IMG/VR virus record: IMGVR_UViG_3300022179_000767
Span: 1 to 39,305 of that record
Strand: one strand, 5' to 3'
DNA from: a virus
Taxonomy: Duplodnaviria; Caudoviricetes
Length of the DNA stretch: 39,305 bases
The notes below the pieces were generated by a model. That model did no database searches and was not told the DNA's origin. It saw only the letters and a list, made by a program, of their open reading frames with translations. Every line of letters starts with the position of its first letter. Position 1 is the first letter of the stretch. Positions 8,120 to 30,778 of the stretch are shown here, piece after piece. The position numbers and the translations under genes are program-made.

Positions 8120-8146
8120 TTTCTATTCCTTCAGTTAAGAGTTTAA

Positions 8147-8652
8147 TGCCTTGCCTGCGTCGCCTCGACTTGCCGGGCGTTGCCCCGCCGGGCGTTGCCT
8201 CGCCTGCCTAGCCTCGCCCGGCCTCGCCTCGCATTGCCAGCCCTCGCCTGCCTCGCCCATCAATGCGATGCCCGGCCGATCTGTGCCTAGCGTCTCCTCG
8301 CCTGCGGTGCCAATCCCAGCCCCGACTTGCAATGCCTGCCCATGCCTGCCTTGCCATGCCTCGCCCATCCGTGCCCTTCCTCTCCGGGCGTTGCCTGCGT
8401 TGCTATGCCCTGCGGTGCCTCAACTTGCCGCGCCATTCGATGCCTGCGTCGCCTCACCAAGCCCCGCCAAGCGTTGCCTTCCGATGCCTGCGTTGCCAGT
8501 CCAAGCCTTGCCGCGTCATGCGTTGCCACGCAGCGCCTTGCCTGCCGATCCCAGCCGGGCCAATCCGTGCGACGGATCGCCTTGCCTGCCTTACCTAGCC
8601 TTGCCGATCCGAGCGTAACTCGGCCGCGCCTAGCGATGCCACGCCTGCCGCG
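8147..8652 (-). ncRNA. Putative guide-RNA array: GGC-NN pentamer repeats in 10 units separated by (G/C)GCAGGC
   Basis: Strict 5-nt period; delimiters (gcctgc on +) at 8153, 8202, 8246, 8300, 8344, 8393, 8442, 8486, 8540, 8584, 8643, all spaced 4+5n; begins right after the stop codon at 8653. Confidence 0.85.
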
Positions 8653-9096
8653 TTATGCGACATCGCGCTTCTGGGATATCCCCAGACGGACGGCCTCGAC
8701 ATGCTCAACCAATTCATCCAGCTCTGGAGCCGCAAGATTGGTCAGCATAGTCGATACCTGCGCCAGCGTGATCAGGATGGCCGAATAGTGATCGGGCTTA
8801 TTGACCGTCACCACCTGTGTTTCCTGATATCCGCCGTTCGAACGGATGAAGCTTGGAACACGCACAACTTCTTCATCTGTCCTGACAACATCGACCTTCA
8901 CCCTCTTGATGAGAGCGCGCGCCTCTTGCAGCCGGTAAGCCGCAGCCGCCTCGCTGTCATCCCAAGTGAAGTAAGAGTGCAACGCGGAGTTCGGGTTTCG
9001 CGCCGCATCGACAACGTCCTCGGGGCGCAAGCGCCCCTCAGACATTAGGCTATGCAATTCCTCACGAATTGCACGCATGCGCTCCCTTGAGATCAT
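8653..9096 (-). CDS. Conserved phage protein, accessory to the Cas7-like gene
   Basis: LRPEDVVDAARNPNSALHSYFTWDD..AA..YRL.EAR.LI motif; ATGA overlap with the upstream RAMP gene. Confidence 0.8.
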   Translation of the reverse strand: MISRERMRAIREELHSLMSEGRLRPEDVVDAARNPNSALHSYFTWDDSEAAAAYRLQEARALIKRVKVDVVRTDEEVVRVPSFIRSNGGYQETQVVTVNKPDHYSAILITLAQVSTMLTNLAAPELDELVEHVEAVRLGISQKRDVA

Positions 9097-9728
9097 TCGG
9101 CCTCTCCAATTCTAAAGCAGCCAAACCCAAGGCCCGTGCTCGACTTACTGTCGTGACGGCCTTCACCAATCCCAACCTGCACACCTGCACGCATCAGCAA
9201 GTTGGAAACGTCAGTCAGAGTAAACTGATCTTCGTCGAACTTCACGCGCAGATCGATCCACCACTCGCGCCACATGGGACGCACGCGAATATCAACGACG
9301 CCCGTCGCATTGCGCGTATGCATATCAAGACGCTCCCAGTCGCCGTGTACATGCACCAGAGGCACGCCATCGACGGCGTCAAACGTATCGGCCTCGACAA
9401 AGACCGACAGTTTCGCGAGCGTCATCTTGAACCCGACGAGACGGCAGGCGGAGATCATCGCGTTGCGGAACGCGCCAGCCGGCACGCCAGCCTTGCCATC
9501 AACGCCGATATGCATGGCGTCCCGGCAGTCCTGATCAAAGTCACGCGCCTCGCGGACCTTCTTGCCTTTGCTGGTGCTGCCCGCAGCCATTTTCGCCATC
9601 ATCGCTTGTTTTGCTTTGGCGGAGAAGCGGGCTTGAACGAACGGCGACGTGCCAATCAGGCGAAACGTCGCAGTCTGGATTTTGGGCGCAGATATAGCGA
9701 CAACGCTCGTAGTCTTTTGCATAGCCAT
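9093..9728 (-). CDS. Stand-alone Cas7/RAMP-like RNA-binding protein (~211 aa)
   Basis: RAMP hallmarks: first strand FRLIGTSP, GVPAGAFRNAMISA helix, C-terminal Gly-rich loop GIGEGR...GLGFGCFRI; RBS ggag before the ATG at 9728. Confidence 0.82.
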   Translation of the reverse strand: MAMQKTTSVVAISAPKIQTATFRLIGTSPFVQARFSAKAKQAMMAKMAAGSTSKGKKVREARDFDQDCRDAMHIGVDGKAGVPAGAFRNAMISACRLVGFKMTLAKLSVFVEADTFDAVDGVPLVHVHGDWERLDMHTRNATGVVDIRVRPMWREWWIDLRVKFDEDQFTLTDVSNLLMRAGVQVGIGEGRHDSKSSTGLGFGCFRIGEAE

Positions 9729-9767
9729 TTCTAACTCCATCAACAGATCATAAGTCCGAAACTATTA

Positions 9768-10400: not shown

Positions 10401-10453
10401 TGAAGCCTCCATAAATAACCTTGGGGGATTGCTCCCCCAAGGCTACCCCCTCT

Positions 10454-12680: not shown

Positions 12681-14794
12681 TGAGTGAGCTGATGCAATTT
12701 GATCCTGAGTTTGCTGCGCCGCCAGACTGGGCGCAGGCATACAGAGATTTGGGCTTGCAGGTCGTCCCGGCGCATACGCCGCGCGACGGCGGCAAGTCAT
12801 GGAAGAGGCCCGCGCTGCCGCAGTGGCGCGCTCTCGAGCACGAACTCGCGCCTGATCTGACGTTCCAACGCTGGTACGGGTCAGATGGCGAGCATGTGCG
12901 TCGTCAAAACATGGGCATCATCACGGGGGCCTGCTCCGGCGGCGTCTTTGTGGTCGATGTCGATCTCCAAAAACAGGACAGCGCCCGCCTTTGGTGGGAA
13001 GGCATCCTGTCTCTACACAACATGGGCGGCGATCTTGAGACGCCATCGCAGACAACCGGCGGCGGCGGGAAACAGTATTTGTTTCGCGCGCCAAGTGGTT
13101 GGAATTCGCCGACTTTCAAGACTAGCGTGGGAGTGGATGTTCGAGGCGCAGGTGGCTTCGCCATGCTGCCGCCGTCGCAGCATGAAAGCGGCGCATACTA
13201 CAAATGGGATGAAGGATTTTCACCTTGGGAAACTGATATCCTCGAAGCGCCTTCGTGGCTCTGCGACGAGATTGACCGGCTTGCGGAAGAGCACGGCGGC
13301 CGCTCTGTCTCGGTGACGGGTGAGAAGACGCCGACGCCGCCGCATTCGATGACGCCTTTTGGGCGCGTGATCGACGGCCGCGAGGACTATGCGACGAGGC
13401 TCGTCTGGGCGCGTGTCGTCGAAGAATACAGAGCCGCGCCAATCCCGCTGGTGCAAAGCGAAATCGACCGCATTGCGGCCGAAATCTTCGCCACTTACGA
13501 GCGCAACGTCGAAAGCCGTCTAAAGGTGCCGGGCGTGTCCCGGGCGGACCTTCTAGAGAGGGAAGGCCGTGGATACTCCATGGTCCTCTTCAAAACCTAC
13601 GCCGCCTTCAAACAGTGGGACGGCAAGGTTCGTGAACATGCGCAGCAAGAGCCGCCGGGCGGGCGGCGAGAAAACCCTACAAGCGATAAATACGAAGAGG
13701 CGACGACGCTCAAGTTCGACGCCTCAACCGGCGAGATCACGCGCGAACCAGCGTCTGACACTTACGAGATGCTCAACATCGTGGGCATCAAGGCGCTGCC
13801 TGAGCCAAAGTACCTGATCGACAAGCTCATCATCGAGCGCGCAATGGGCTTCATTTATGGCGCTCCCGGCTGCGGCAAGACGTTCATCGCCCTCGACATT
13901 GCTCTGTCAGTCGCCGGCTCAATTAAGTCATGGTGGGACCGCAAGATCTATAAGAGCGGCCCCGTCCTCTACATATCTTCAGAAGGCGTTGGCGATCTCA
14001 AGAACCGCATCAGCGCATGGGAAGTCGAGCAGCAAACAATCTCTGACGCATTTCCGTTTTTCCTGATCAGGCAGAACATCAACTTCATGGCGGAGCCTGA
14101 TGTCGAGCGCCTGCTCAGAACCGTCGCGAAGCTCACCGTCGAGAACGGCCAGCCCGTTGCAGTCTTTGTTGACACCGTTAGCCGTGTGCTACCCGGGGCA
14201 GACGAGAACCTGCAAAAAGATATGACGTTGTTTATTCGCGCCTGTGACGCGGTGCGTGAGGCGTTCGACACGGCCGTGATAGGCGTTCACCACACCAGCC
14301 GCGCCGGCAATCTGCGCGGCAGCACCGTCTTCGACGGCGCAGGCGATTTTTTGTTGCAGGTCGAGCGCGAAGAAGGCGAATGGACCGGCGAGATCATCGC
14401 CCGCAAGATCAAGAGCGCGCAGGATGGGTGGAGACTTCCGTTCGAGTTAGTCAGGAAGCCAATCCCCAATACTATCGGCGGCGAGTCCCTAATTGCCCGC
14501 CCGCTGTCTGAAGACAAAAAGCCAAAGAACAAACTGCCTGAGAAGGAAACTCTTAGGAGAATTCTTGACGAAATGCGTCAGGCGTGGATTGATAAGAACC
14601 CTTGGACGCTTTCAACACATGGGCGAGCCAAGGCGCGCAGCGCGATTGTTATGATGCAAGTTCGATATAGCGTGCCTGAAAAGATCGCTCAGTTCCTCAT
14701 CGATCAATGGATAACGAATGAGGTCATCAAGGAGGGCTTGTGCGATACGCATTCAAAGAGGATGGGCATACAGGTCATAGGAGGGATTGACTGA
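12680..14794 (+). CDS. Bifunctional primase-polymerase fused to AAA (RepA-like) helicase
   Basis: Prim-Pol motifs NMGIITG, VVDVD, TGGGGKQYLF, DVRG.GGF..LPPS.H; Walker A GAPGCGKT, VFVDT, VHHT; TGATG coupling to RuvC. Confidence 0.92.
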   Translation: MSELMQFDPEFAAPPDWAQAYRDLGLQVVPAHTPRDGGKSWKRPALPQWRALEHELAPDLTFQRWYGSDGEHVRRQNMGIITGACSGGVFVVDVDLQKQDSARLWWEGILSLHNMGGDLETPSQTTGGGGKQYLFRAPSGWNSPTFKTSVGVDVRGAGGFAMLPPSQHESGAYYKWDEGFSPWETDILEAPSWLCDEIDRLAEEHGGRSVSVTGEKTPTPPHSMTPFGRVIDGREDYATRLVWARVVEEYRAAPIPLVQSEIDRIAAEIFATYERNVESRLKVPGVSRADLLEREGRGYSMVLFKTYAAFKQWDGKVREHAQQEPPGGRRENPTSDKYEEATTLKFDASTGEITREPASDTYEMLNIVGIKALPEPKYLIDKLIIERAMGFIYGAPGCGKTFIALDIALSVAGSIKSWWDRKIYKSGPVLYISSEGVGDLKNRISAWEVEQQTISDAFPFFLIRQNINFMAEPDVERLLRTVAKLTVENGQPVAVFVDTVSRVLPGADENLQKDMTLFIRACDAVREAFDTAVIGVHHTSRAGNLRGSTVFDGAGDFLLQVEREEGEWTGEIIARKIKSAQDGWRLPFELVRKPIPNTIGGESLIARPLSEDKKPKNKLPEKETLRRILDEMRQAWIDKNPWTLSTHGRAKARSAIVMMQVRYSVPEKIAQFLIDQWITNEVIKEGLCDTHSKRMGIQVIGGID

Positions 14795-19145: not shown

Positions 19146-19176
19146 AGATTAGCATGAAGAAATTGCAGCCGTCAAG
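19146..19176 (-). promoter_or_regulatory. Sigma70-type promoter with internal operator
   Basis: cTTGACG-N18-TAATCT; spacer contains CATGAA-N5-TGCA. Confidence 0.65.
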
Positions 19177-20026
19177 CGGCTGCTAATTCCTCCTGCGAGC
19201 CCTGCTTGCGCAGGAATTCGACGGCTTGGCTCGCCTTGCTGGCGGCGGTCATAAACGCCTGCGGGTCGCTTTTCACCAGCTCAATCCAGTGTTGGATATA
19301 GGCGGCGTGCTGGGTGACGGCGTCGAGACCCAGCTCGGCGCAGAGAAACGCAGCGCCCAGCTCGGCGACCAGTTCCTCGGCTGCATATGCGTTGTCGCCA
19401 AAGCGCTTGCCAAACTGGCGGTTGCAACGGCTCTCCGCTCCGGTCCAATGCACCAGCTCGTGCAGGGCCGTCGCATAGTAGCTCGCGCGGCTATCGAACC
19501 GCTCGAACGCCGGCAGGCGGATCTCGTCGCCTGACGGGCGATAAAAGGCGCGGTCGCCGCCGTGATGGATCACTGCGCCCGTGGCGGCGATGAACGCGTC
19601 ACACGCCGCGTCGCGCTCGTCGGGGTTGATCTCCAGCGGCGCAGGCGCGTCGAGATCGAGGCCCTCGCACTGCTCGACGTTAAACACGGTGAATGATTTC
19701 AAAAACGGGATGGACGCGACATTGCCCGCGTCGTCTGATTTCTCGAACCGCGAGACGAACGTCACGGTTGTCCCTTTCTCGCCCTTACGCACGCTGCCGC
19801 CCAGCTCCTGCGCCTGCTTGAACGTCAGCCATTGGTTCGAGGAATAGCCATGCTCCTGTTGCGTGATCCAAAGCAAAATGACGTTCGCGCCCGAATAAGC
19901 GCGCTTGGTGCGGGCGTTCTTGGGCAGGCCCGCGTTCGTGCTGCTCCACGGCTGCACCCACGGGAGCACGCCCGTCTCCATGGCGGCGAGGATGCGGTCG
20001 GCGACTTCTTTCTGCAGGTTGCGCAT
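19172..20026 (-). CDS. ardC: ArdC-family antirestriction protein (ssDNA-binding domain plus zincin-like domain)
   Basis: PWVQPW, YSGAN, WLTFKQA...GG.VRKGEKG, VFNVEQ, HELVHWTG and YAAEELVAELGAAFL motifs. Confidence 0.95.
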   Translation of the reverse strand: MRNLQKEVADRILAAMETGVLPWVQPWSSTNAGLPKNARTKRAYSGANVILLWITQQEHGYSSNQWLTFKQAQELGGSVRKGEKGTTVTFVSRFEKSDDAGNVASIPFLKSFTVFNVEQCEGLDLDAPAPLEINPDERDAACDAFIAATGAVIHHGGDRAFYRPSGDEIRLPAFERFDSRASYYATALHELVHWTGAESRCNRQFGKRFGDNAYAAEELVAELGAAFLCAELGLDAVTQHAAYIQHWIELVKSDPQAFMTAASKASQAVEFLRKQGSQEELAAA

Positions 20027-20066
20027 GGGTAACTCCATCTACAGCTAAGGTTGCGATTACCAGATC

Positions 20067-26734: not shown

Positions 26735-29700
26735 ATGGCTGACGACGCTCCGCAGCAACAAGACGATGGCGGCTTCTGGTCGTCGTTAGGCAAGATGGTC
26801 TCTGAGGCGTATCAGGCGACAAATCCTGAGAACATGTACGCCAATGCGTACAAGCTTTATGAGACCAGCGGCTTCACGCCTGAACAGGCGGCGGAATATG
26901 CGCAGCGTCATCAGGACAGCGTGGCCGCGAAGATGGGCCGCACGCGCATGCTCGCTAACGCGGTTGGTTATTTAACGCCGGCGACTGCGCCTGCAATGCT
27001 GTTGAACGATGCGTACACGGCCGCCGAGTCTGGCGACCCGCGCAAGATTGCTGAGACAGGCGCTTTCTTTGGAGCTCCGCGTGCGATTGGTCAGGCGATT
27101 GATGCCGCTGCGCCGCATGTAAAGCGCGCGTATGAAGGCACGAAGAGCGCGTTTGGGTATGCAGGCGGCGGCGACGTAGACCCTGTTTCTCTTGCGCGTC
27201 GCACGCTGTCTGAGCCGCGTGTGATGCGCGAGAAGCGCAAGGCTGGAGGCACCCAGACGGCTCCTGCCGAACCGCCGACTGCTTACTTTGAGGTTGCGCC
27301 CGGTGAGAAGTGGGATGCTGACCTGAAGCAGCGGTGGGAGGCGCTTCACCCGCAGGCAAAGTCCGCTGTCTCTAATAAAATGATCGGCGAGTTCTTGAGC
27401 CGGTGGCAGCGCCAGACTGGCATCAACGGCGAAGTGCGGCCGGGTCTTGGCGGCTTTGAAGGTTATTCCAATCCGAATTACACGTTCCAGCCTTACGATC
27501 CCAAGCACATCGTGCCGTCGTTGAATGGTCTTGGTGAGCTGTTCCATCAAGACGCGATGATGGGCGCGCATGCGCAGCCGTTTGAGGGCAGTTTCCCAAC
27601 CGGCGTCATTCGTGTTCAGTTGCCAAAGAACTCGTCGCCTGACGAAATCCATGATGTCTACAAGACGTTGCATGCGCAGGGGCTTGCTGAAGGCCACTCG
27701 ACGGATATCGGCAACGGCACGATGGATATCATTGGCGGCGATGGGAAGGGCGAGACGATTAAGCTCGCTAAGGCCATCGATGCTGCTCTTGGCGGCAAGT
27801 ACGACGTAGCGTCTTATCCGACTAACATTGCATTTCCTTCGAAGGGGGAAGCCTATGGCGTATCTGGGACACAGGCCGGCAAATCACCCGGAGCATCCAC
27901 ACAAGAAACCGACCCTCGTCTTCAGGCCGAGTCACTCTCCCGGCTCAAAGAGCTCGTCGAAGAAGCCCACCGCCAAGGCGCAGGGCATGAAGGGGAAGTA
28001 TCCTTCGGGGACACGTTAAGCCCGGGCGAGGAACATCCTGACACGGTGTCTGCGGCGCTTCCTACGACGGTTAAAGAATACAAAGGGCCGCCGCTGCCGG
28101 GGACGACAAGAACTGACATCTCGCCAAGCCTGCATTCGGACGAGAACCGCAAGAAGATTGCGCTGCGCATGTATGAGCAGCATCCTGCGATGTGGTCGCC
28201 GGGCGAAGAAGGCCAGACGCCATCGCCTGCGGAAGCAGAGCGCAGGCTGACAGACTTTCATGTGAAAAATCTTCTTGCTCTGTGGGATCGCACGCCGCCC
28301 GAGCAGCGCAAGACAAGCCGCTTTTGGTATCGCGCGGCGCATGCTCTTGGCAATCAATATGCGGACGAGCACAATCTTGAGCCGCGGGCCGCGCACGGCA
28401 TGATGGCTGTTCTGTCGCCGCAAACGCCTTGGGACAAGAACGTTACTCTCGCCGAGCGTGTGATGGATGCGATGACGCATCATCAAGACACGCCGTGGAC
28501 AAGAGGCATGTCTGAAGTTGCGCGCTCTGGCGGCGACAAAGGCAACGGACTTCCTGAGATTAAAACAACTAAGAATGTTCAGGGCGTGAATTGGTCGGAT
28601 CTCGAAGGAAAATCGCTGCGCGATGTTCTCGCCGAGGAGAACGGCGAAAAGAAAGCTTCGATGTGGATACGCGCCTTTGATGAAGCGCACAATCCGCGCG
28701 AGTATCAAGCCGTAAGCCCGACCGGCGAATTTCTTGGCCCAATGCAGAACAAGACCGGCACGGCCATCGACACCGCGTCTTGGAACAGCTATTTGCCGAT
28801 TGAAAAAGCGGTTAAAATTTATCGTGATCCAAGCCTTGAAAACATCAACAGGCAAATCGGGAACAATCACAAGGTTCGTGAGTTCTATAACGTAATCACG
28901 AACCCGAACGATCCGAACGGCGTTGTGATTGACACGCACGCCGTCGCTGCCGGTCAGATGCTGCCGCATGGTTCGAGCGCAAAGGCTGTTCACCAAAACT
29001 TTGGAACGACGCCGACTTCTCTCGCCAAGGAGCAGCTTGCCCGCAAGGGAGACCCATGGATTGAAGGTCTCGACCCGTCGAAGAAGACGGGCCAGACGGG
29101 CGCGACGGGCGATTATCCATTGCACGCCGAGGCTGTTCGTCAGGCTGCGATGATGCGCGGCGTGCATCCGTCTGAAATGCAGTCTGTGACGTGGGAGGCG
29201 GTTCGCACGCTATTCCGCAACAAGTCGCAGCCAATGCAGCGTGGCGCGCGGGATATTTGGAAGCGGTATGCCACTGGCGAGCTGACACATCCGCAGGCGA
29301 TTGACGCTCTTGTCCAATTGAATGGCGGCTTCAACCGTCCTGTCTGGGGCGAGCAGGCGGGCCAAGGGCTTGGTCAGGCGAGGACGGGATCATATCAGCG
29401 CCCGACCGACGTGACGCCTGATACCGCTGCTCTTCCGCGCATGCGCGCGACGCAAGACGACGATGAATTTGCAGAAGGCGGAACAGTCCAAAAAAAAAAT
29501 TCTTCGCTCCGCGCCCCTGAGTTATGGCCGTCAGCGCAGCGAATAAAAGCAGGAGAAGGCTCTCGCGAAGAGCACGCCGATTTGGTGAACCGCCTAAAGC
29601 CTGTTCGCCCGTATGCGGAGCCTGTTCCTCCTGCGACGGACGCCGAGGTTTACGATGCTTTGGACAAAGGCAAAAAGCCAAATGCTTTTGTCCCGCGTCA

Positions 29701-30778
29701 GCTTAAAGACGGGACGCCTGTAGCTCTTCGCTTAGACATCCCTGCCTATGAAGACAAAAACACATGGGTTGTGGCGGTCCACCACCCTAAACCTAATTTC
29801 ACGGCCGGCGACGTTATTGGTTACGACAGCGTCGCGCATATCGATAACCCCAAGTTTGGGGTTCATCCCGTGGGCGCGTTGAATATTGCTTCTGGAAAGC
29901 CAAAATCTACAATTGCCACCGTTCATGGAAACTGGAGAAGCACCAATCCAGAATATGCTTATGAGATGGCGAAGCAGTATCACAATGACCCTGAATGGCG
30001 TCAGGTTGGAATGGACCCAGAGCGCCATTCCTATTTCTATGATCGCGAGACGCAACAGCCTGTAATTTCTGCCGACGAGGCATTGCATATTGGCCCGCTC
30101 GTCTATGCGAAGAACCCAGTTTACGACGACCCTGAGAAATATAAGTTTGCTGACGGCGGAGAGGTTGATCGGTTTATTCCGCGTGAAGATCCGCGGTATC
30201 AACGCAATCTTTCTAAGTTTCATGGCAAGACGCCAAAGGAAATTAAAGAGGCACGCTGGTATCATGGAACTCAAAGAGATTTCCAAACATTTCGTCCAAA
30301 TTCAGAAGGAATTATTTTCTTAACGAGAAACCCCAAGTTTGCTGATGATTATAATTTTAAAGGCGGCATTGGTCAGGATTTCGATGAAAAAAACAAAGTT
30401 TGGCTTCCGCGAGAAGGGTCAGACATACAGCCAAATACAATGCCTGTTCATGTCCGAGCCGAAAAACCGTTTGACTACGAGAACCCACGTCATTTGAACA
30501 AACTTGTTCAGGAGCTAGGCCCGGATCTTATTATGGACCCGTATCTGCACACTTTCGTAGACGAGGTACGTCAAGGACATTGGGGCGCTATTGAAAGCCC
30601 GCCTATTCAAAGTGCTATTAAAGCGATGGGACATGACTCATTCTTCGTTAAAGAAAACGGAGAAAAAAATCTTGGCGTCTACGACCCGTCGCAAATAAAG
30701 TCCGCTACCGGCAACAACGGAAACTTTGACCGCGCCGAGGATGACATCACCAAGGAGCGTGGAGGCACTGTTGACTGA
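26735..30778 (+). CDS. Large polyvalent (multidomain) protein with C-terminal ADP-ribosyltransferase-like domain
   Basis: C-terminal WYHGT...IFLT.NP.FA..Y...GHDS...DPSQIKSATGNNGNFD; central WY....AVLSPQ..W..N...KV..FY...IDTHA...MQ.VTW domain. Confidence 0.78.
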   Translation: MADDAPQQQDDGGFWSSLGKMVSEAYQATNPENMYANAYKLYETSGFTPEQAAEYAQRHQDSVAAKMGRTRMLANAVGYLTPATAPAMLLNDAYTAAESGDPRKIAETGAFFGAPRAIGQAIDAAAPHVKRAYEGTKSAFGYAGGGDVDPVSLARRTLSEPRVMREKRKAGGTQTAPAEPPTAYFEVAPGEKWDADLKQRWEALHPQAKSAVSNKMIGEFLSRWQRQTGINGEVRPGLGGFEGYSNPNYTFQPYDPKHIVPSLNGLGELFHQDAMMGAHAQPFEGSFPTGVIRVQLPKNSSPDEIHDVYKTLHAQGLAEGHSTDIGNGTMDIIGGDGKGETIKLAKAIDAALGGKYDVASYPTNIAFPSKGEAYGVSGTQAGKSPGASTQETDPRLQAESLSRLKELVEEAHRQGAGHEGEVSFGDTLSPGEEHPDTVSAALPTTVKEYKGPPLPGTTRTDISPSLHSDENRKKIALRMYEQHPAMWSPGEEGQTPSPAEAERRLTDFHVKNLLALWDRTPPEQRKTSRFWYRAAHALGNQYADEHNLEPRAAHGMMAVLSPQTPWDKNVTLAERVMDAMTHHQDTPWTRGMSEVARSGGDKGNGLPEIKTTKNVQGVNWSDLEGKSLRDVLAEENGEKKASMWIRAFDEAHNPREYQAVSPTGEFLGPMQNKTGTAIDTASWNSYLPIEKAVKIYRDPSLENINRQIGNNHKVREFYNVITNPNDPNGVVIDTHAVAAGQMLPHGSSAKAVHQNFGTTPTSLAKEQLARKGDPWIEGLDPSKKTGQTGATGDYPLHAEAVRQAAMMRGVHPSEMQSVTWEAVRTLFRNKSQPMQRGARDIWKRYATGELTHPQAIDALVQLNGGFNRPVWGEQAGQGLGQARTGSYQRPTDVTPDTAALPRMRATQDDDEFAEGGTVQKKNSSLRAPELWPSAQRIKAGEGSREEHADLVNRLKPVRPYAEPVPPATDAEVYDALDKGKKPNAFVPRQLKDGTPVALRLDIPAYEDKNTWVVAVHHPKPNFTAGDVIGYDSVAHIDNPKFGVHPVGALNIASGKPKSTIATVHGNWRSTNPEYAYEMAKQYHNDPEWRQVGMDPERHSYFYDRETQQPVISADEALHIGPLVYAKNPVYDDPEKYKFADGGEVDRFIPREDPRYQRNLSKFHGKTPKEIKEARWYHGTQRDFQTFRPNSEGIIFLTRNPKFADDYNFKGGIGQDFDEKNKVWLPREGSDIQPNTMPVHVRAEKPFDYENPRHLNKLVQELGPDLIMDPYLHTFVDEVRQGHWGAIESPPIQSAIKAMGHDSFFVKENGEKNLGVYDPSQIKSATGNNGNFDRAEDDITKERGGTVD

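Follow-up and report, generated by a model that had tools for sequence, protein, structure and literature searches.

The first unit of a guide array carried by a freshwater phage is predicted to lead the Cas7-like protein Vipr to the large serine recombinase genes of elements resident in the likely host, and so to silence them. The comparisons of sequences behind this reading give it a probability of about 0.75, and the serine recombinase gene class, taken by itself, can be named as the target with slightly more assurance. The window, i.e. the whole phage record of 39,305 bases (39.3 kb), encodes GcrA, GapR, a primase-helicase, a terminase and an SU10-type portal. The locus is almost certainly a VIPR locus and its array VIPR guide RNA, VIPR being a gene-silencing system related to CRISPR and reported in 2026 in a preprint that was accessible in part (bioRxiv 10.64898/2026.04.26.720920).

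The GGY/NN array lies on the minus strand at 8146..8649 and consists of ten staggered units of 44-59 nt followed by a two-pentamer stub. The units hold 8-11 NN pairs, have lengths of 44, 49, 54 or 59 nt (5n-1) and meet at NGCAGGC, where the register shifts by one base, the boundary falling between NGCA and GGC with a one-base overlap between abutting units. The units abut directly, and the invariant structured 3' tail that is a feature of type II VIPR is absent from the array. The RNA of unit 1 folded no better than its shuffles (z -0.85), and the promoter and terminator scan gave hits at chance level only. Neither CRISPR repeats nor a cas operon was seen in the window, and no cas family was found among 30 ORFs scanned with Pfam or 26 ORFs scanned with PHROGs. 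None of the full units targets the window itself at 80% or more, the best gapped self-match of unit 1 being 15/22. Elsewhere in the record, a strong hairpin with 13-base arms and a 4-base loop (10416-10445) is located between the GapR gene and the upstream gene of the same operon; a 1347-aa polyvalent-type protein with DUF7178 and ART-PolyVal domains is encoded at 26735-30778 (+), and an ArdC-like protein at 19172-20038 (-).

On the minus strand the vipr gene is followed by a 147-aa gene and then by unit 1. The vipr gene (9093..9743, minus strand) was assigned by profile and model to a stand-alone RAMP (Cas7-like) protein of 216 aa as called, the length in most close relatives being 211 aa. 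A profile of 38 Vipr relatives retrieved one PDB sequence, 36pp_D of SUSP1 Vipr, with an E value of 4.4e-5 over the C-terminal 46 positions. The predicted model had a pLDDT of 79.6 and its Foldseek matches were Cas7/Csm3-type chains. The modelled RAMP fold would thus be common to Vipr and the Cas7/Csm3 backbones of class 1 CRISPR, whereas the guide code of the window is gapped (2 of 5 bases) and pairing in class 1 CRISPR is contiguous. The 147-aa gene (8653..9096, minus strand) is a candidate accessory gene (vap) that belongs to phrog_15946 and to no Pfam family. Its copies adjoin vipr in other loci, with 83% identity in L138 and L162 and 59% in L166; the single-sequence model of the protein was of low confidence (pLDDT 50.5). 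A total of 6583 Vipr relatives was found, and GGY/NN arrays could be parsed in 152 of 174 Vipr loci, yielding 887 unique units. Among the relatives, that of cyanophage Cy-LDV1 (67%) is annotated as a hypothetical protein, and the same annotation is given in 32 records of Mycobacterium and Gordonia phages (about 30% identity among the matches listed). These are cultured phages in which guide arrays could be sought.

According to the accessible sections of the first VIPR preprint, the skip of one base, the wobble alignment, transcriptional repression and a target cut-off of 80% NN identity are established for this system, and its guides hold 9-16 repeats (bioRxiv 10.64898/2026.04.26.720920). In SUSP1, each pentamer of the RNA is covered by one Vipr subunit; its GGY bases are concealed and its NN pair is matched to the DNA, in which the skipped base is flipped, and transcription is repressed. 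The filament apparently assembles in the 3'-to-5' direction, as judged from the available part of the SUSP1 VIPR structure report (bioRxiv 10.64898/2026.04.26.720927). The legend of fig. S18 in the first preprint describes a staggered VIPR, which resembles the window in the RAMP gene that stands alone, an accessory gene (a candidate one in the window), GGY/NN pentamers, a one-base unit offset, a phage-borne location, a wobble-aligned 1-base skip and no self-target (bioRxiv 10.64898/2026.04.26.720920). As far as that legend goes, the window differs from the published staggered VIPR in belonging to a freshwater alphaproteobacterial-type phage.

Unit 1, a predicted vrRNA at 8587..8645 (minus strand), is made of 11 GGY/NN pentamers and a 4-base junction. 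Read on the minus strand from 8645 to 8587, it is GGC.gt GGC.at CGC.ta GGC.gc GGC.cg AGT.ta CGC.tc GGA.tc GGC.aa GGC.ta GGT.aa GGC.a, and its NN pairs are GT AT TA GC CG TA TC TC AA TA AA. Taken as codon positions 1-2, the pairs give V[IM]YARYSS[KN]Y[KN], so that the decoding proposed in the first-pass annotation (VIYARYSS, then K/N, Y, K/N) is exact; the reading on the opposite strand is [FL]Y[FL][DE][DE]YRAY[IM]T. The serine of the Y-x-R-x-S motif is the catalytic nucleophile of serine recombinases. A gene for such an enzyme had been said to be absent from the window, and this holds: the motif Y[ACVIL]RxS[ST] does not occur in the six frames of the 39,305 bases, and no recombinase was found among the 30 ORFs scanned with Pfam.

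Comparison of related arrays divides unit 1 into a conserved core of eight pentamers (8606..8645, minus strand; GT AT TA GC CG TA TC TC, decoded as VIYARYSS) and a variable 3' tail of AA TA AA (8591..8605, minus strand), the last two pentamers of which (8591-8600) are strain-specific. The array of L001, whose Vipr is 100% identical, has AT TA GC CG TA TC TC AA, thus keeping seven of the eight core pairs, all unchanged. In L138 and L162 (Vipr 88% and 93% identical) the eight core pairs are unchanged and are followed by AA AA. Contigs from three of four runs match positions 8601-8799 and then diverge, and the fourth run has the window form. The pair AA is terminal in 323 of the 887 unique units and was found at 572 of 5617 inner positions. 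The last three dinucleotides had been noted to fit the motif less well; this is explained by relatives that stop after AA or AA AA, AA being common at unit ends, and the tail is variable and likely padding, as far as the compared arrays indicate.

The arrays turn over by whole units. The array of L001 has seven units in common with the window plus others, unit 1 is the first unit in the window and the last one in L138 and L162, and two-pentamer mini-units occur among these four arrays. Across the three phage lineages the NN pairs of the core did not change, whereas the scaffold bases, the tail and the array position differ. When all shared units were compared, as pairs picked at NN identities of at least 75%, the differences in NN and scaffold bases amounted to 4/118 vs 16/177, 5/88 vs 17/132 and 1/82 vs 20/123. 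The greater conservation of NN in several guides argues that the guides are functional; it does not by itself identify the target of unit 1.

The skip rule was evaluated on viral sequences. The eight-pair core with a 1-base skip has about 600 viral matches, as estimated from 13 of 64 parts of the collection. With the same 16 core bases and zero skip four viral matches were obtained, and one shuffled order of the core gave a single one. Among 120 viral core matches that were fetched, 116 were serine recombinases, reading VIYARYSS..Q, and 101 scored 18-19/22 over the full unit, which passes the published cut-off of 80% NN identity (bioRxiv 10.64898/2026.04.26.720920). Searches of the viral, genomic and metagenomic collections with the full 22-base pattern (11 pairs) gave no exact match, and full-length scores reached 19/22 at best. 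The viral core matches are mostly integrases with downstream motifs unlike those of the genes of the likely host family, so that they reveal a common motif and do not name the target.

With respect to the host, the Vipr closest to that of the window among genomes (89%) is encoded by a contig binned into an Aestuariivirga MAG, which belongs to the family of genome G001. The same contig encodes a capsid, a terminase and a portal protein 88%, 67% and 65% identical, respectively, to those of the window. From this binned contig of a related phage we infer that the host probably belongs to the family of the Aestuariivirga MAG. GapR did not discriminate as a host marker, its best match in each of the five genomes compared being 42-49% identical.

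In 201 genomes of this family the core gave seven exact matches in five genomes, all of them serine recombinases, and its backwards control gave none. At up to one mismatch, 14 matches in 12 genomes were found (control, 7), 12 of which are serine recombinases matched in frame a few codons past the start, within the first ten or so codons. Over the full unit, the natural sites in G032 and G002 score 19/22 and 18/22, respectively, which is above the 80% cut-off. Eight target ORFs were scanned for domains: Resolvase (PF00239) and Recombinase (PF07508) were present in all eight and Zn_ribbon_recom (PF13408) in seven, the composition of the large serine recombinases that form the predicted target family and are not encoded in the window. 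Four more recombinase matches are short or frameshifted and were judged by translation alone, and, as assembled, three of the seven exact-match genes are short or carry frameshifts. An independent-codon model predicts about 0.05 exact wobble-aligned matches, a figure to be read with the post hoc choice of the motif in mind. With a 2-base skip, these genomes gave no exact match and one at one mismatch (control, 5). For unit 1, therefore, the 1-base skip fits targets better than zero skip in viruses and better than a 2-base skip in the 201 genomes, as the sense, wobble-aligned reading had proposed. Neither of the two refuting outcomes set beforehand, gapped matches no commoner than in shuffled controls or a better fit of another gap size, was thus obtained, and another element's serine integrase, suggested at the outset, is borne out as the likely target class.

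Immediately downstream of the motif, the similarity among the seven exact-match genes is only 45-90%. Six of them lie behind tyrosine-recombinase-like genes and one (G159) is in a prophage-like region. In the prophage-like integrases of G155 and G120 the motif is AIYARYSS, and the L001 version of unit 1 fits them at 14/14. Poor matches were obtained with isolated or viral relatives of the prophage-like integrase, the best core scores being 12/16 in RR1-A, 13/16 in both Mae-JY30 and Mae-JY29, and 11/16 in L372. A recurring three-gene element was observed in L241, L243, L244, L245, L247 and L249, in which two tyrosine-recombinase-like genes precede a large serine recombinase gene. In L242, L250 and L251, prophage-like regions carry a serine integrase together with ParB-like and HD-like genes; DUF5131 is present in L250 and L251, where the integrase adjoins a similar host membrane gene.

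Other units of the window served as comparators. Unit U2 gave ten one-mismatch matches in the 201 genomes, equal to its control (10). For U5 (8396-8444, minus strand), 32 matches were obtained, one exact and 31 at one mismatch, against one in the control; among the 20 fetched, 12 were one permease matched antisense and one was a prophage tail gene matched in frame. The latter is a tape-measure-like gene on a prophage contig of the host family (L359, 17732-19672), matched at 15/16; other guides match this contig more weakly and did not exceed their shuffles. Unit U10 (8205-8248, minus strand), the NN pairs of which are unchanged in four arrays, gave three exact in-frame matches in 3 of the 201 genomes, all in one clade of a beta-barrel porin (PF10082), with one match in the control and an expectation of 0.26; this match to a host porin gene is probably due to chance. 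Single clades of host genes thus do appear by chance, and unit 1 differs from these comparators by its lower expectation, the divergence of its matched genes (45-90% alike downstream) and a mobile-element enzyme as the match. Unit U9 (8249-8302, minus strand) decodes to [DE][DE]YTSR[IM][IM][CW][DE], its L001 version containing ..YAAR.., and its best self-match (14/20) falls on EDYATRLVWA at 13382-13411 (+), a motif of the primase that the phage itself encodes. A primase motif EDYMTRIIWA is present in P0123, one of 13 relatives, and the U9 core had no exact viral match; from its decoding, U9 may be aimed at the primases of rival phages.

The best surviving alternative, although an unlikely one, is that unit 1 is a real guide that resembles recombinase genes by chance, its true target being an unsampled phage gene, on either strand, that also fits the tail. 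The motif is common and was picked after the fact among ten units and two strands, which was counted against the preferred reading. No exact full-length match was found in the three collections, targets of the other units of the window were not found, and the exact matches of U10 and U5 in host genes are at about the chance level. Co-targeting by guides of the window and of its three closest arrays was not observed either. With 42 guides and 12 regions around recombinase matches, and with 31 guides and the Vipr loci plus prophage pieces, no other guide rose above its shuffles; with 31 guides and 319 ORFs of 15 loci, 0 of 27 other guides did. The only guides that beat their shuffles in these scans were variants of unit 1 and the preselected U5 match. 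No independent guide to the unit 1 motif was found among the 887 unique units, in a panel that was chosen with unit 1 and is circular for it. Against a chance resemblance, the tail varies between strains and is unlikely to be needed, seven exact matches contrast with about 0.05 expected and fall in genes that have diverged from one another within a single family of mobile genes, and the opposite-strand reading gave no exact match and two unrelated one-mismatch matches in the 201 genomes. The proposal of a single rival element as the target is not supported: the scans identified none, and the matching elements are not co-targeted by any other guide above shuffles.

In the course of these scans, a cluster of guide matches in prophage G103:C31 was rejected on the shuffle test (U10, p 0.14; others higher). 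Guides in the arrays of L004, L006, L007, L010 and L011 read like phage motifs (ILDDLGT, GDPYL, YVDYS[HS]Q, [HQ]IL[DE]TKG and VKGTHY), some of which recur between arrays; we take these motifs of the L004-L011 arrays to resemble those of helicase loaders, polymerases and nucleases.

It is improbable that unit 1 is a relic or a weak guide, acquired against one element and now mismatched at its 3' end with little effect. The core-matching genes of the family do carry 3-5 mismatches over the last three pairs, at the end where the SUSP1 filament appears to begin its 3'-to-5' assembly, and this was also counted against the preferred reading. When one target was compared with its top 30 relatives in the family, the motif could be parsed in 23 of them and seven were dropped; the core scores were 16 in five, 15 in five, 14 in three and 13 or less in ten, so that just 10 of the 23 parsable recombinases reach 15-16 of 16. 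The core NN pairs, however, are unchanged over lineages with 7-12% Vipr divergence in which scaffold bases have changed, and unit 1 has been retained in the first or last array position. Finally, a degenerate 5-base tandem repeat or low-complexity reading frame with a meaningless decoding is largely refuted and can be set aside, since, although several overlapping low-complexity ORFs cross the array and Tandem Repeats Finder reports a period of 5, arrays are present in 152/174 Vipr loci, strains exchange entire units, the scaffold is less conserved than NN and no reading frame is maintained by 5-base repeats that shift by one base.

Under the preferred reading, a Vipr filament carrying unit 1 would bind the first codons of the serine recombinase gene of a resident element. 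The bound Vipr would then block transcription of the recombinase, and the prophage or integrative element would stay integrated during the infection. The parts of this scheme that we infer are the expression and processing of unit 1, the host, the sufficiency of eight pairs, the repression and the natural target element; the filament steps (Vipr coating, NN pairing, base flipping and repression) are borrowed from SUSP1. Skipping of the wobble base had been proposed to make the guide resistant to synonymous escape, and this stands in part. The wobble base is indeed skipped, but the arginine and both serine codons can become AGR or AGY, and 6 of 14 family genes that encode.IYARYS[ST] have an AGR arginine codon or an AGY serine codon; wobble skipping therefore resists synonymous escape only partly.

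A wider version of this reading is more tentative. Unit 1 could be a broad-spectrum anti-integrase guide, in which eight pairs without a tail, placed on the catalytic motif, freeze several unrelated integrated elements, with the cassette being passed between phages at the NGCAGGC junctions, the 3' pairs serving as padding and escape proceeding via AGR/AGY. If true, the guide would cover prophage-like elements as well as elements with two tyrosine-recombinase-like genes and a serine recombinase, which are 45-90% alike beyond the motif, and AGR for Arg or AGY for Ser would be the sole synonymous route left by the wobble skip.

The closest precedent is the type II VIPR of SUSP1. In the accessible part of that study, vrRNA4 is predicted on six wobble-aligned codons of the catalytic domain of the F5 satellite recombinase, and excision of the satellite is released when vipr is lost (bioRxiv 10.64898/2026.10.15.759431). 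As far as these sections extend, both systems would place a guide on wobble-aligned recombinase codons of an integrated element, following a logic that blocks excision and limits escape. The SUSP1 satellite recombinase, as given there for the modelled protein, begins with a Y-L-R-Y-S-S motif; vrRNA4, however, covers residues 79-84 with six units, whereas unit 1 would cover the N-terminal YARxS strand with eight, just after the start codon. In the same sections, the SUSP1 guides carry a pseudoknot tail and converge on one satellite, in contrast to the guides of the window, which have no tail, lack co-targeting and have matches that span prophage-like and other integrative elements. Type II VIPR (SUSP1, P. 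fulva) has a structured 3' tail, unlike the units of the window. The first preprint, in its accessible sections, names natural targets of guides belonging to types II, III and V and states none for staggered arrays (bioRxiv 10.64898/2026.04.26.720920).

VIPR itself, the skipping of the wobble base and a guide on the active-site codons of a recombinase are already published for SUSP1. As both the system and the principle are in print, the gain from unit 1 is incremental. It links a guide from a staggered VIPR array without tails to a concrete predicted target; for arrays of this build, the accessible sections of the published work report no tested target. If the preferred reading is right, recombinase targeting, published for a phage of E. 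coli, would extend to a freshwater phage of the alphaproteobacterial type, and unit 1 would bear on two points, namely whether the 3' pairs of staggered guides pair with their targets and whether the six-fold codons of arginine and serine permit escape.
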